Below are positions 15,001 to 27,000 of a stretch of 64,000 nt of DNA, in pieces (position 1 is the stretch's first letter; every line of letters starts with the position of its first letter). The position numbers were made by a program. Source of the stretch: Bryobacterales bacterium (GTDB lineage Bacteria; Acidobacteriota; Terriglobia; Bryobacterales; Bryobacteraceae); assembly GCA_963703295.1 (NCBI GenBank), contig OY969810.1:8364001-8428000 (forward strand), read 5' to 3'.

Positions 15001-18000
15001 CACAGCCGCGTTTACTACTTCCTGAATGGCGGCAGCGAACAAGTATACATGGGCAGCGCGGATCTGATGCCGCGTAACATCGACCACCGCGTCGAAGTAA
15101 TTGCGCCCATCGAAGATCGCAAGATTGTCCGCCATATTTGCGATGAGGTATTGGCCGTCTATCTTGCGGATACGGCCAAAACCCGGCAGATGCTCCCGAG
15201 CGGCAGTTATATACGCAGGAAGCCGATAGACGGAAAGAAGGCGCTCAATGCACAGGAGTGGCTCCTGAAGCACAACCGAAAAGCTACCCCTCGCGGACGA
15301 ATCACAAGGTCTCGATCACTGTCGTGAGGCGCATTCATCGGCAGGCGTTTTTCTGCAATTATGCGCTGCCGAGCTTAGCTGCCGATCAGATGGAACAGCC
15401 AGAACAGGCCGCCCGAGAGCAGCATGGATGCAGGCAGCGTAAGCACCCAAGCCATCAGGAGATTGCGCACCGTTTCCCATTGCAGACCGGAATGGTTCGC
15501 GGCCATGGTTCCCGCCACGCCGGAGGACAACACGTGGGTGGTACTTACGGGCATGCCTAGATGATCGGCGCCGAGAATGGTCAGCATGGCGGTGATTTCC
15601 GCCGCCGCACCCTGCGCGTAGCTCAGGTGCTGCTTACCGATCTTTTCACCGACAGTAATAACGATACGCTTCCAGCCGACCATGGTGCCAAGGCCCAGAG
15701 ACAACGCGACGGCAACCTTCACCCATGGCGGAATGAATTTGGTGGCGCTATCGATGTGCGTTTTGTAGTTATCGAGCGTGGTCCAATCGTCCGCCGCAAT
15801 GTTCGGAGATTTTTCCTTCTTCATCAGACGGAGCGTCTCGCTAGCGATGTACATGTTGTTGCGGAAGTTGGGGACATCCTTGGAGGGCACGTATTTCAAT
15901 TCGCGAAAGTGCGCGGTCTCGTCGGCAAGACTGGTGATCATCTGCTCCAAGTTGGCCATGGTATTGGGCTGCGCGTTGTGCGTTCGGAGGTAATCGGTAA
16001 GAGCGGCGCGTGGGTCGGTGGGCGACGTACCGGCGGGAACGTATTTGTGGACGGTGGTTGCAGAGACACGCGAAACGGCGACGAAGTCCTGCGTCTGGGC
16101 TGGGGTAATGGCGTGGTTCAAGGCATACGCGGTGGGAACGGTACCGACGAGGATGAGCATGATCAAGCCCATGCCCTTCTGGCCATCATTCGAGCCGTGG
16201 GCAAAACTAACCCCGGTACACGTGAGCCACAGCAGCGCGCGGATCCCCATAGGCGGCGGTTGGTTCCCTTTGGGCGCTTCGTAAAGCTTCCGATCTTTGA
16301 CCAGCATCTTTGTAATTGTGAGCAGGAGCGCGGCTACGCCAAAACCGACAACCGGGGAAAGTAATAACGTCTTACCAACGTTCGCAGCCTGACTCCAATC
16401 CACGCCGCTTGTTCCGCTGCCGGCATTAATAAGCTGGTTGGCGACGCCGACGCCAATGATCGATCCGATCATCGTATGGGAACTGGAAGACGGCAGACCC
16501 AGGAACCAGGTGCCGAGATTCCAAATGATGGCGGCCGCCAACAACGCAAACACCATATAGAAGCCGGAGCCGGCCCCTACTTGCAGAATCAATTCCACGG
16601 GCAACAGAGAAATGATGCCGAACGCCACCAGACCGGTGGACGTCAGCACGCCAATGAAGTTCCACAAACCCGACCAGACCACCGCGATGTGGGGATCGAG
16701 TGAGTGCGTATAGATTACGGTTGCGACCGCGTTCGCCGTATCGTGAAAACCGTTGACGAATTCGAAGCCGAGCGCGACAAACAGCGCGACCGCGAGCAAT
16801 ATGTAGGGATAAACCGAACCACCATGTACCGCTGAAAGATCGGATACCAATTGCGACCCGACATACGTGAAGCCAACAACCAGGGCAAGCCCGAAGACAA
16901 GCAGTCCGATTTTCCCTGGTCCCTTACCAAGTTTCGCGTCTAATGCTGTGGCTGGCGCGGCAGCGGCCATGTTTACACCTCGGCTTGCCAGTCTACAGAA
17001 CTCTTGTTACAGCAGGATTAATATCTGCGGAATTTGCGCAGCACGATGGTTAGATATAGCGCAGGCAAGCGCGGCCCAGATAGATTTCATCGCCGGCGCG
17101 GAGTTTTTCGCCGCGGCGGTTGCCGGCAGGTACTTCGATCGAGCGGCCGTCGCGAAAGACCCTGGTCCCGAATTCGCTCTCATCGTCGCAGAGCCGATAT
17201 TCGCCGTCTTCCAAGCGGATGTGGGCATGCTTGCGGGAGACGGTGGCGTTAGCCTCGTCGGCGCCCTCTTCGAAGACGATGGCGTTGCGGCGAACCACGC
17301 GGTGCTCGGAGTCGGTAAGCTCCGCCATGCGGCCGATGTTGACGCGCAGGCCGCTGAGTTCGTATTCCGGCTGTTGGGTCTTTCCTTTGACTACCACCAG
17401 ACGCGTGGGTTTAGCGGCTGTTTGCGCAGGAACCGAAGCGGGCTTAGCGGAATACTCGATGATGAACGGCTTGGCGCCCGTCTCGGCGGTTCGCACTTCG
17501 ACCGAAAAATCGCGCGGGATCTCGCATCCGGCCGTCTCGAACGCCTCGCGGATATCGGCCTCCAGGCGCTCGCCGAACGCGGTTTCGAGCATTGCGCGGC
17601 GATTGGCATCGGGTGAAACGATGGTCACAACCACGCGCGCGAAAGGAAATATGCGGCGGCCGCGGGCGAGGGTCTCGATCTTGGTTTCCATTTCATCGAG
17701 AATGGCGCGGTGGGTGAGCAACAATTCGTTCGATTCGGCGGCGCCGAAGAGGCGCTCAGTCCACCGCTGGAAGCCGCGCTCAATGCTTTTTTCGATGCCG
17801 GAAAAGAGGCTCATAGTTGGATTGGGTTCACTGGGCCAGGCTCATTGGATTAACCCCAATTTAACCGCCGCGTTGACAATTTCGGCGGCGGCCGGCGCGG
17901 CGGCGGTTCCCCCATAGACTCCATTTTCCACCAGGACGGAGAAAGCAATCCTGTGTGGCGCGGCGCTGCCATATGGCGCGAAGCCGATGAACCAGGCGTG

Positions 18001-24000: not shown

Positions 24001-27000
24001 GTCACTCAATCCATCGCTGCAGAGAAGAAGGGCGCTTTCGGCGTCGAAGGGGAGACGCTCGATATCGATGAAATTGGGGTCGTCAGGCGCGTGCTCCTCG
24101 GAGCCGACATCGCGGAACACTTCGTTACGGCGCGGATGGCGCATAGCCTCGGCTTCGCCGATTTCGCCGGCGTCTTCGCGCTCGCCGACGGGGGAGTGGT
24201 CGCGCGTGACTTTGCGAATTTCGCCGCGGCGAATGAGGTAAATACGGGAATCGCCCACGTGGCCAATATGAGCCGTTCCGTTTTCCACCACAGCGAGGGT
24301 GAGAACGCACGCCATGCCTTGCCACTCGGGGTTGGTACCGGCGGCGGCCAGAATTTCGTTATTGGCGAGGGCGATAGCCTCCCGAATGCGAAGCTCGACG
24401 GCGCCGGTCTGACGCTCAAGACGAGCTCGAATACGTTCTACGGCAATGGCGGCGGCCTTTTCACCAGCCGCGTGCCCGCCGATGCCATCCACCACAAGGA
24501 AAATACCGCGCTCGGGATCGAGGTGGAACGCGTCCTCATTGTTGCGGCGGACGCGTCCGGGGTCGGTGCGGGCGGCGGATTTGAGCACGGTCATGACCAT
24601 AGGGGCGCGCCTGGGCCTAAGGTGATGACGATTTTCGCGGGCATTTGGTTCGCCGATTTCGCAAACAGCATTCCTATTATCGGTTTAGCACGATGTGCCA
24701 GCCGAAGGAGGCCTTGGTATTTCGCCGCATTTCGACCCGAAACCCGCGAACTGAGAACTCAACCTCAACGTCTGCGGCATTTACCTCGTCCAGGACGTCC
24801 CCGGCGCGCGCAACAACGACAGTCATGCGCGTTACCGCATGGCGGCATCCCTCGCAAGCGTTCCGGGGCCGCCGGTCCCGCGCCTGCGATGAAATCAGCG
24901 TTAACCGGACTACTGCGACTTCGTCTTCTTCAATTCGCGCTGATGGTCGAGATAGCTTTCGCCTTCGGTGATCCATCCCGGCGCAGTTTCGCCCTTGAGG
25001 TAGTATCCGAACCAGGCGAAAATGCGGCGCTGATAATCCACCTGATCCGCCTTCTTACGTAATCCGTGATCCTCGCCGCCGTAGACCAGCAGCACCACAT
25101 TCTTGCGGGCGCGGCGGGCGATGTTGTACAGCTCGATGCCCTGATGATAGAAGACGGTTCCATCGGCGTCGCCCACTTCAATCATCAACGGGGTTGTCAT
25201 TGTGGAGACTCCAAAGACGGCCGAATTGCGGATGTAAGCCTGAAGATCCTCGTAAAGAGGAACTTCCATACGCTGTTGACCGGTTTCGATGTGGTCTGTT
25301 TCGGCGATGCCGGAGCTCCAGTGGTGGTTGCCGTAATTGCTGATCAAATCGGTAATCGGCGCTCCCGCCACTGCGGCGGAGAAGATGGTGGTGTGCGTGG
25401 CCAGGAAGCTGGCGTCGAACCCTCCCCATGAGTGACCCACGATGCCGACTTTATCCACCACGCCCTTCTCCTGAACCTTCTTCACAGCAGCGGTGACGCA
25501 ATCGGCCACGGAAAGTCCGGGTTCACGCTTCGTGAAGACGATATCGGGCTGCAAGACGAAATAACCGTGGCTGGTCATCGCGCTGACGCTGTAGTAACTT
25601 CTTTCTGAAGGCGCGTTATAGCGATGAAGACCGTCGGACAACTTCTCATACATATAGACGATCATGGGATATTTCTTGCCGGCTTCGTAACCTGCCGGAT
25701 AGTCGAGAATTCCCTGTAGGCGCGTTCCGTTTGATGACTTATACTCGATTAACTCGGAGCGTCCCCAGGTATACTTACTCTGAAACGGATTCGTGTCGGT
25801 AACACGCTTCGCATCCTTGAGATCGGCACCGGCTACGAAGAGGTTCGGCGATTCTTCGAAAGTCTCCGAGAGATAGTCGAAGACCGGGGCATCGGCTGCC
25901 TTGGCCAGGCGTTCAATGCTCTTGTCGCCCAGGACCAGCCTTTCGGGAGCAGCGGCGCCCGGCTTAAGCACGGCGTAGCCCGATTTCTTCGACCAGACTC
26001 CAAAGAGGCTTAAGTAGACTGGCTTTTCCAGATCTATGAAGTCATCATCCGAATTGAGGCGAACGTAGCGATGGCGCAACTGCTCGGAAGAGCCATCCGT
26101 AAGACGCGTAGCGCGCGAACCATCGGGCGAGACCTTCCAAAGATCGTATTTATCGTAGAGGATTACATCACCATCGTTCTTGGTCCACCCCGCCACCCCG
26201 AACGGCGGCTTTTGCTTAACCGTCTCATCGGATTCATGATCCACAAACGAAGTCTTGATGTTCTTAGTGACATTGACAGCCGCACGTGTAGCTATATCGA
26301 CCACCCAATACTGATCGTTTTCGAGATAGAGAAGATAGCGGCCGCCGGGGCTTGGCTGCAGATAGCGATCTTCAGCCAGTTTGTCTTTGATTTTCGTGCG
26401 CTTGGCGGTGGCGAGATCGACTAAGTAGATATCCGCTGCCGGACGGCCGATGCTGCGGTCCATGGCATATTCTTTCCATTCCGCCGCATAGGCCAAATTG
26501 CCGCGCTTCAGCGGCGTTACCTGTTCGGTATATTCCGTTCCGAGAGGGGTAAACCCGCCCGAGGATACATGCCACGCGGCCAGCATATTCCTGCGGCCGT
26601 TCTGCGCCGCATTCTTCACCTGATGCGCCATCACTTCGGTGTCGCGCCAGTTCCAGACATCGACAGTTGGTTGATCGTCCGCGGCCGCGCCCGTATCGGA
26701 TGTTGCGCCGTCGCTTGAATCTGACGCCCCCGCGCCGCCTCTGCCGCTACGCCGTGGGGCCGGGGGTTTGTCGTACCAATCGGACAAGCCGACAAAGATA
26801 TTGTCGCCATCCTCCGACCAAGAGGGCCGGCGGAAAGTAACGGTACGTAATCCGGCGGGAAATTTTGCATCGGAGGTCGGATCGTAGACGCGGGCCGTTT
26901 CTGAGGGATCGTTTAGATGGGTCCAAGCCAGCGCAATGTAACTGGGGCCATCGTGCTTGTCATCGGTCTTCGACTTTAAGGCCGCCAGATCCGCACTGTC

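Follow-up and report, generated by a model that had tools for sequence, protein, structure and literature searches.

The window, a stretch of 64,000 nucleotides from the genome of a Bryobacterales bacterium (contig OY969810.1), carries an operon in which a SEDS glycosyltransferase and a class B penicillin-binding protein (bPBP) form one protein, encoded together with a membrane phosphatase, a Ser/Thr kinase and an FhaA-like adaptor. It lies within a conserved FhaA/PP2C/kinase cassette, and we interpret it, with moderate confidence, as an accessory one-chain wall synthase that is likely gated by phosphorylation and would serve under envelope stress. The span given in the genome-wide survey's note that preceded this analysis is exact, and its genes and features lie as follows:

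23014-24600, minus strand: membrane PP2C phosphatase, 528 aa; catalytic domain 1-250, TM helix at about 267-285, periplasmic right-handed beta-helix (Pfam PP2C and Beta_helix)
21089-23017, minus strand: single-pass Ser/Thr kinase, non-RD (HGD), 642 aa; TM helix at about 363-381, periplasmic TPR domain (Pfam Pkinase)
17842-21108, minus strand: SEDS-class B PBP fusion, 1088 aa (Pfam FTSW_RODA_SPOVE 189-547, E 9e-51; Transpeptidase 786-1078, E 4e-39)
21091-21108, minus strand: N-terminal cytoplasmic motif M-A-V-T-x-S of the fusion, from conservation in aligned homologues, with Thr4 as predicted phosphosite or FHA docking point
20638-20967, minus strand: periplasmic insert of the fusion between TM helices 1 and 2, with a predicted, degenerate ComEA/GspK-like tandem helix-hairpin-helix (HhH) fold, from structural matches
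17050-17814, minus strand: cytoplasmic FhaA-like adaptor, 254 aa; FhaA_N-like domain and FHA domain (Pfam FHA, hhalign)

By these coordinates the kinase gene overlaps both of its neighbours, PP2C and the fusion; a scan for promoters and terminators gave a result at chance level. The fusion runs from a cytoplasmic tail (1-26) through a first TM helix (27-45), the periplasmic insert (48-155) and a second TM helix (159-177) into the SEDS core (189-547), followed by a linker and TM helix (553-586), a putative PbpA-like pedestal (about 590-780) and the transpeptidase domain (786-1078). The SEDS domain scores 173 bits against PF01098 (cut-off 26.4), with its catalytic residue, Asp448, in an xxTD motif that aligns with that of FtsW, and the transpeptidase retains S833xxK836, S898-C899-N900 (SxN) and K1025TG. 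D448, S833 and K836 are kept in 106 of 106 diverse aligned fusions. Among the same 106, Cys857 and Cys899 co-vary (both in 85, neither in 16, 857 alone in 5, 899 alone in 0), and the two are predicted to be joined by a disulfide bond at the SxN motif. From what is known of the two families, the SEDS half would polymerise lipid II and the tethered bPBP would cross-link it without a partner gene.

The best PDB profile match of the fusion is mycobacterial PbpA, and in the AlphaFold model (pLDDT 92.2, pTM 0.83) the periplasmic part superposes on PbpA across about 515 columns with an rmsd of about 4.5, where Pseudomonas PBP3 gives about 11-12. For the transpeptidase fold, VIA structural matches to PBP3, PbpA and chains from Atopobium score Z 42-45. 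All NCBIfam scores of the fusion fall below their cut-offs. The pedestal has no Pfam match in the window protein and weak ones in divergent homologues (PBP_dimer in 10/32, PBPA_dimer in 4/32); the structural alignment, which covers PbpA, starts at about residue 617. An assembly error is rejected as the source of the single reading frame, since identity is 70-100% and coverage 95-100% among the best 120 of 4759 homologues. The shorter homologues listed by a search were apparent fusion fragments, with no named stand-alone relative among them.

Two further full-length copies were found in the genome by tblastn (48% and 44% identical; 1077 and 1075 aa), and all three, counting the window protein as copy 1, keep the SEDS Asp, SxxK, SxN (SCN) and KTG. 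The survey's description of three fusions of 1075-1088 aa with intact catalytic motifs, apart from the normal RodA-PBP2 and FtsW-FtsI, is thus upheld, as the housekeeping pairs are separate genes in the same genome. These pairs have the same two catalytic folds in the same domain order, but share about 24-30% identity with the fusion and fall in separate clades, and the fusion lacks their mre or dcw context. Engineered RodA-PBP2 fusions likewise combine the same two folds in the same order. Codon use in copies 1 and 2 resembles that of the host (GC3 0.705 and 0.685, median 0.694), so that both are long-resident. The survey had placed FHA, PP2C and kinase genes beside each copy; such genes are present, but the window operon is without the leading FHA gene, the closest match to which is an orphan at C1:6689733-6690740, and the operon of copy 3 is rearranged, its leading FHA protein having lost the GR/SRxH motif.

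The fusion occurs in 40/100 family genomes, and in full-length or near-full-length form in 11/400 genomes of the phylum. This patchy presence beside intact RodA-PBP2 and FtsWI fits a dispensable role. Fusions were also found in Bacteroidota and Armatimonadota, so the survey's attribution of the system to Acidobacteria was too narrow. The order fhaA-PP2C-kinase-fusion-fhaA holds at 37 of the 40 family loci, at 5 of the 10 phylum loci (three more are rearranged) and at all six fused acidobacterial loci in GTDB, and a Spirosoma plasmid carries FHA-PP2C-kinase-kinase-fusion-FHA. Flanking genes are common to at most 4 of 56 loci, which implies that the cassette travels as a unit, and the same comparison of flanks gave no conserved mre, dcw or competence genes. 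An anti-phage system was considered and rejected, the PADLOC matches being kinase domains plus one weak phosphatase match.

Fusions and unfused homologues were compared in a FastTree phylogeny of 40 taxa. The fusions form one clade (support 0.994) that is sister to, and not nested in, the Gram-positive rodA-pbpA operons; the unfused actinobacterial, firmicute and Chloroflexota sequences group at 0.978 and the joint clade at 0.90. An unfinished IQ-TREE search gave the same topology, without support values. The RodA-PbpA subfamily is thus shown to have a sister lineage in diderms. Transfer from within Actinobacteria is not supported: a small tree hinted at actinobacterial sisterhood, but wider sampling put the fusions outside the whole unfused clade.

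The closest unfused relatives in GTDB are the actinobacterial operon fhaA-fhaB-pstP-rodA-pbpA-pknA-pknB and firmicute FHA-SEDS-PBP loci, which have in common with the cassette FhaA homologues, a membrane PP2C, a SEDS protein with two extra N-terminal TM helices and a PbpA-like bPBP. The kinship with the mycobacterial pstP-rodA-pbpA-pkn operon proposed in the survey therefore holds, given the PbpA match, the FhaA homologues and the sister group in the trees. There are also clear differences. The actinobacterial operon has separate rodA and pbpA genes followed by an RD kinase with PASTA domains, and FhaB, whereas the acidobacterial cassette has the fused gene, two FhaA and no FhaB, and its kinase lies upstream, carries TPR instead of PASTA and is non-RD. 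Unlike actinobacterial RodA/PbpA, the fusion contains an extra 105-aa periplasmic insert and is accessory in a diderm.

Natural SEDS-bPBP fusions ('bifunctional class B') were reported in 2025 from Senegalimassilia faecalis (931 aa) and Pedobacter ginsengisoli (1341 aa), one host being Gram-negative (PMC12516126). The reported proteins join SEDS and transpeptidase in one chain, with Ser/Thr kinase and phosphatase genes in the flanks and intact FtsWI and RodA-PBP2 in the genome, and the window fusion is alike in each respect: one open reading frame, a kinase/phosphatase flank and intact housekeeping pairs. Such proteins had been described before, as the survey suspected, and in a diderm as well; the survey's claim of novelty was overstated: the present family is not the first natural fusion. 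The Pedobacter protein has two SEDS hits and no pedestal hit. The Spirosoma fusion likewise has two SEDS stretches and no pedestal match, and Bacteroidota homologues are mostly 1300-1350 aa; by these shared traits the Pedobacter protein is probably the Bacteroidota branch of the family described here. Of the first 27 rows of Table S11, one is from Acidobacteriota, and its two domains stand in reverse order. FHA, helix-hairpin, type VI and Solibacter do not appear in the main text, and the cassette, the HhH-like insert, the non-RD TPR kinase and the monophyly of the diderm fusions are absent from the covered sections. A literature search for the acidobacterial cassette, a ComEA-like periplasmic SEDS insert, a non-RD TPR membrane kinase, two FhaA homologues or a conserved cytoplasmic Thr4 found none of these, and the parts covered of PMC7159879 and PMC8262863 contain nothing on this system. 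Among the best sequence matches of the fusion are PDB chains of the transpeptidase part from Coriobacteriia, titled 'peptidoglycan glycosyltransferase' (Atopobium parvulum 4jbf/4n1x, Eggerthella lenta 4mnr). With its numbering of 523-950, the Atopobium chain would suit the C-terminal half of a SEDS-PBP fusion as long as those in Table S10 of PMC12516126. Only the soluble part of these proteins is solved, and their hosts are monoderm.

The motifs of the regulatory partners are intact. The kinase residues K41, E58, D147 and DFG are conserved, the catalytic loop reads HGD in 39 of 44 cassette kinases, and TPR_19 is matched in 24 of 34. Bacteroidota and actinobacterial kinases are of the RD type, so the non-RD form is specific to the acidobacterial branch. 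In the phosphatase, D38, D196 and D236 are kept in at least 85% of 50 sequences, although its score against NF033484 (204.8 bits) is below the cut-off of 230; its TM helix was placed by hydropathy, and the beta-helix profile matches polysaccharide lyases and epimerases. Both cassette FHA proteins are full-length FhaA homologues, the window protein aligning with actinobacterial and firmicute FhaA at 99.4% over 230 columns (hhalign) and retaining the FHA motifs G161-R162 and S193-R194-x-H196. The cassette has no FhaB-type gene (NF049868, 25.7 bits against 125).

A threonine stands at position 4 of the fusion in 70 of 82 aligned rows, with all four Thr codons in use. Both paralogue types retain it, as do loci without the kinase-stop overlap, and copy 3 lacks it; among deep homologues Thr4 is found at the start in just 18/89. 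At many loci the Val3-Thr4 codons share bases with the kinase stop codon, which could explain part of the conservation. We predict that the periplasmic TPR domain senses a cue, that the non-RD kinase would then phosphorylate the synthase tail at Thr4 and/or cassette partners, that the two FhaA-like proteins would bind to this phospho-Thr, positioning or activating the synthase, and that the membrane PP2C would reset it. A phosphorylation switch and a part in wall repair are plausible; a stress or repair role is suggested by analogy with mycobacterial RodA, for which PMC12516126 cites a damage response.

The same enzyme and signalling might instead serve development or morphogenesis (dormancy, polar or branch growth, septal completion), a real possibility that we consider clearly the less probable. 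The unfused kin belong to an actinobacterial growth and division operon and to firmicute loci, PMC12516126 treats such fusions as putative morphogenetic synthases, and long residence of copies 1 and 2 is in keeping with this. However, 60 of the 100 family genomes gave no fusion, elongation and division pairs are complete, and the fusion loci have no conserved mre or dcw neighbours. It is unlikely that the synthase is active without phospho-control while kinase, FHA and PP2C mainly act elsewhere, for example on the supply of precursors or the flipping of lipid II. Mycobacterial PknB and FhaA act through CwlM, MurA and MurJ (PMC6736417), and the stand-alone fusions L042, L044, L084, L092 and L093, where the cassette position holds neither a kinase nor a phosphatase nor an FHA marker, show that the regulators are not always needed; yet the overlapping, tightly linked genes, a PP2C-SEDS-TP triple fusion (P0254) and the conserved Thr4 suggest close coupling.

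The survey had read the cassette as a T6SS-linked module of contact warfare for repairing the wall while the apparatus fires or once the cell has been attacked, which we now regard as quite improbable, and as a general rule this reading is largely refuted. Copy 3 does adjoin T6SS genes, being convergent with tssF-tssG-vgrG-tssK in an island of about 60 kb that it shares with a second T6SS cluster, and non-RD kinases are tied to innate immune signalling in other kingdoms (PMC8463890). Against this, T6SS markers occur in the flanks (up to 8-9 kb) of 0/59 other fused loci; the nearest case is in genome G498, where one contig has tssF at a distance of about 32 kb. Fusion and T6SS show no significant co-occurrence across genomes (30/40 vs 38/60, p = 0.28), and the main T6SS (C1:2.40 Mb) is far from all three copies. 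Copy 3 itself lies on the opposite strand, with RD kinases, the degenerate FHA and GC3 0.573, in a low-GC integrase/tRNA island that the sister species lacks; copy 3 has no close orthologue in 200 genomes of the order, and a metagenome scan confirmed no relative. YkuD and M23 genes do precede copy 2, as the survey noted of its LD-transpeptidase/M23 context, but this context recurs in 0/59 other loci and is absent from the sister species' orthologous locus (L067), and we rejected these genes as part of the system.

The best four of 48,161 structural matches of the insert (VIA) are HhH-fold proteins, led by two ComEA structures (2duy, Z 6.4; 8dss, Z 6.1) and followed by GspK (6.0) and Tex (5.7); Foldseek and PDB profile searches gave nothing significant and the ESM Atlas no usable match. 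A role of the insert in binding DNA or some other polyanion, by which wall synthesis would be linked to the uptake of DNA or to the detection of lysed neighbours, is very improbable: these ComEA-led matches and Pfam HHH_3 (6/32 divergent homologues, 0/51 close ones) speak for it, but the Z scores are middling and include GspK, the hairpin glycines of the HhH motif are absent from the window protein, 7/32 divergent homologues have a CarboxypepD_reg beta-sandwich within their N-terminal part, and no competence genes are conserved nearby.

The accessory, phosphorylation-gated synthase thus remains our preferred reading. To our knowledge, little is understood of the way in which Ser/Thr phosphorylation and FhaA govern SEDS-bPBP synthases; the known FhaA operon sits in Gram-positive hosts and is tangled with core growth. 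The module described here, which is not a T6SS accessory, is a portable and apparently dispensable cassette in harmless, culturable diderms (Solibacter usitatus, Spirosoma linguale). As it combines a natural one-chain enzyme with just one kinase, one phosphatase and one candidate phosphosite, it makes the question of control directly testable and offers a ready structural target. More speculatively, and at doubtful strength, one rodA-pbpA fusion may have given rise to receptor-gated wall reinforcement in Acidobacteriota, Bacteroidota and Armatimonadota, in which the acidobacterial non-RD TPR kinase would resemble a pattern-recognition receptor and phosphorylate Thr4 of the synthase, and two FhaA would switch the synthase on, with neither MreBCD nor FtsQLB needed. 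If true, these bacteria would have an immune-like wall response that can be induced, and SEDS-bPBP enzymes a third mode of activation.

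All four genes of the operon lie on the minus strand of the window, in exactly the place that the genome-wide survey's note gave for them, with overlaps of 4 bases between the PP2C and kinase genes and 20 bases between the kinase and fusion genes.

Genes of the window operon (window positions)
23014-24600, minus strand, PP2C gene
21089-23017, minus strand, kinase gene
17842-21108, minus strand, fusion gene (1088-aa open frame)
17050-17814, minus strand, FHA gene

The fusion carries the Pfam domains FTSW_RODA_SPOVE (189-547) and Transpeptidase (786-1078). It is real, because the best 120 of its 4759 homologues, whose named organisms include Bryobacteraceae and Solibacter usitatus, match at 70-100% identity and 95-100% query coverage. 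A genome search located two further full-length copies, copy 2 (1077 aa, 48% identical to the window fusion) and copy 3 (1075 aa, 44%), which bears out the claim of three copies; the SEDS Asp, SxxK, SCN and KTG are kept in all three, and the housekeeping PBP2-RodA and FtsI/FtsW are, as had also been stated, encoded apart as separate genes. The housekeeping RodA (L004:5967-7058) gives no match to the TD[FY] motif pattern, and FtsW matches it.

The well-conserved accessory SEDS-bPBP fusion stands in a five-gene signalling cassette. Of 100 further genomes from the family, 40 contain it at E<=1e-50, many of them as two paralogues. In a sample of 400 genomes from the whole phylum, three of them flagged unpublished and lacking a fusion, 11 have it at full or nearly full length. 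Among 40 loci fetched from the family matches (20 window-type, 20 mostly copy-2-type), 37 show the order FhaA-PP2C-kinase-fusion-FhaA; the exceptions are the sister species, which has no first gene, a locus cut by a contig edge (L071) and a solitary fusion (L084). The 37 include the copy-2-type locus L086 (G429:C2), where frameshifts in kinase and fusion represent decay or sequencing error. The order recurs in five of ten phylum loci (three are rearranged, two solitary) and in 6/6 acidobacterial fused loci among the GTDB matches listed, from a scan of 3/64 parts. No flanking gene is common to more than four of 56 loci; polyphosphate kinase and PiT phosphate transporter genes downstream of the window operon (13120-16970) are shared, among the 40 loci, only with the sister species. 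The leading gene absent from the window operon is probably an orphan FhaA-like gene at C1:6689733-6690740 (L172:5731-6741, minus strand), which matches the leading gene of the cassette best and has probably become separated from the operon. Outside the phylum, a Spirosoma oryzicola plasmid carries FHA-PP2C-kinase-kinase-fusion-FHA, many Cytophagales and Chitinophagaceae encode fusions mostly of 1300-1350 aa, and Armatimonadota encode it too. A further fused GTDB locus (L093) lies on a MAG labelled Janthinobacterium. As a side observation, protein P0254 (1389 aa) is a PP2C-SEDS-transpeptidase triple fusion.

Among the GTDB matches listed, the closest unfused relatives are actinobacterial fhaA-fhaB-pstP-rodA-pbpA-pkn operons and firmicute FHA-SEDS-PBP loci. 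In a concatenated FastTree phylogeny (40 taxa, 684 columns, 18 names listed for removal), 16 fusions form one clade (0.994) and 18 unfused pairs from Actinomycetota, Bacillota and Chloroflexota another (0.978); the node uniting both clades has 0.90, with housekeeping RodA-PBP2 apart (0.947). The SEDS-only tree (fusion clade 0.53, joint 0.97) and the transpeptidase-only tree (0.97 and 0.62) agree, though their support is mixed; fusions of Coriobacteriia and Chloroflexota were left out of the trees. The proposed kinship with the mycobacterial pstP-rodA-pbpA-pkn operon thus holds in that such operons are among the closest unfused relatives, but the fusions are their sisters in the tree and not members. 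The window cassette would work like the actinobacterial operon but is set apart from it by the fused gene, the type of kinase and its place in the tree.

An AlphaFold model of the fusion (82-sequence alignment, pLDDT 92.2, pTM 0.83) and hydropathy give, from the N-terminus, a cytoplasmic tail, a TM helix (27-45), a periplasmic insert (48-155), a second TM helix, the SEDS core, a helix (553-586) carrying the bPBP anchor, the pedestal and the transpeptidase. The two extra N-terminal helices are similar to those of actinobacterial RodA, in which the loop between them is short. The top PDB profile match is mycobacterial PbpA, on which the modelled periplasmic part aligns with an rmsd of about 4.5 over about 515 columns, compared with 11-12 for PBP3. 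Across 106 diverse fusions D448, S833 and K836 are invariant, and Cys857 and Cys899 occur together in 85, neither in 16, only 857 in five and only 899 in none, a count that overstates co-variation because kin are not independent; the pattern suggests a disulfide at SxN. Folded alone (pLDDT 88.6), the insert has ComEA (Z 6.4 and 6.1), GspK (6.0) and Tex (5.7) as the best four of 48,161 structural matches, and Pfam HHH_3 is found in 6/32 divergent and 0/51 close homologues; we read it as a predicted degenerate HhH domain.

The signalling proteins retain their key residues. The kinase keeps K41, E58, D147 and DFG, and has one TM helix and a periplasmic TPR domain (TPR in 24/34 members). Its catalytic loop reads HGD in 39 of 44 cassette kinases (HAD in one, HRD in one, three unmatched); genome-wide, 51 of 55 such motifs are HRD and the only two HGD belong to copies 1 and 2, with HRD also in the kinases of copy 3, Spirosoma and Actinobacteria. 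Non-RD kinases have been linked to innate immunity (PMC8463890, consulted in part). The PP2C keeps its metal-binding aspartates and, in window-type operons, bears a periplasmic beta-helix; copy-2-type PP2C (e.g. L001:8247-9161) mostly stops just past the TM helix (~300 aa), without it. Both FHA proteins align full-length with actinobacterial/firmicute FhaA (99.4%), and their GR and SRxH motifs, which bind phospho-Thr, are intact. The fusion tail begins M-A-V-T-x-S, with Thr in 70/82 rows and all four Thr codons occurring; the kinase stop codon overlaps the Val3-Thr4 codons in many loci, and the motif persists also without the overlap. It is absent from copy 3 and opens only 18/89 deep homologues.

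SEDS-bPBP fusions were published in 2025: the part of PMC12516126 consulted names 117 'bifunctional class B' proteins, gives about 377 SEDS-PBPA_dimer entries (Table S10), and shows kinase/phosphatase-flanked fusions in Senegalimassilia and Gram-negative Pedobacter ginsengisoli. We infer that the Pedobacter protein, which is not among the best 120 of 4759 window-fusion homologues, represents the Bacteroidota branch of the family. The numbering of Atopobium PDB chains (523-950) suggests that a structure for the transpeptidase half of one natural fusion dates from 2013. The main text of PMC12516126, as far as consulted, does not mention FHA, helix-hairpin, type VI or Solibacter; no paper on the acidobacterial cassette was found in a search that left subscription journals mostly uncovered, and parts of the supplement of PMC12516126 may list acidobacterial members. 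The claimed novelty is overstated: the fusion also occurs outside Acidobacteria and belongs to the class published in 2025, with variant features that are unreported in the literature found.

The window fusion is probably a wall synthase gated by phosphorylation; mycobacterial PknB/FhaA provide the background (PMC6736417, in part). By analogy, a stress or repair role is an evenly balanced proposition, mycobacterial RodA having a damage-response role as cited in the part of PMC12516126 consulted; a developmental role seems rather improbable. Use in contact warfare is not supported: 59 fused loci from other genomes (40 + 10 + 9) show no T6SS marker in their flanks, which extend up to 8-9 kb and less where a contig ends, tssF occurs in 30/40 genomes with the fusion vs 38/60 without (p=0.28), and the link of copy 3 to a T6SS is one acquired island. 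YkuD and M23 markers, the neighbours of copy 2, were likewise in the flanks of 0/59. A single stretch of ~60 kb, bordered by an integrase and tRNA-Gly, contains both copy 3 and the second T6SS; its GC is 0.55-0.56 vs ~0.60, and the GC3 of copy 3, 0.573, falls under the 5th percentile (0.618). The region is missing in the sister species, and no close orthologue of copy 3 was found in 200 order genomes (E<=1e-280); the main T6SS, at 2.40 Mb, is distant from all fusion copies. This low-GC island (G000 C1:3.00-3.06 Mb; L173, L006, L002, L003) also holds kinase-WD40, vWA-FHA and FHA modules on both flanks of the T6SS, with a sigma-factor match on one side and a similar-looking gene on the other, two transposase-like genes with identical starts, the integrase at tRNA-Gly and, nearby, a T4SS coupling protein. 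Copy 3 has a SprT-like metallopeptidase downstream (L002:7164-7868), and its operon includes a 225-aa protein without Pfam family (L002:14147-14824).
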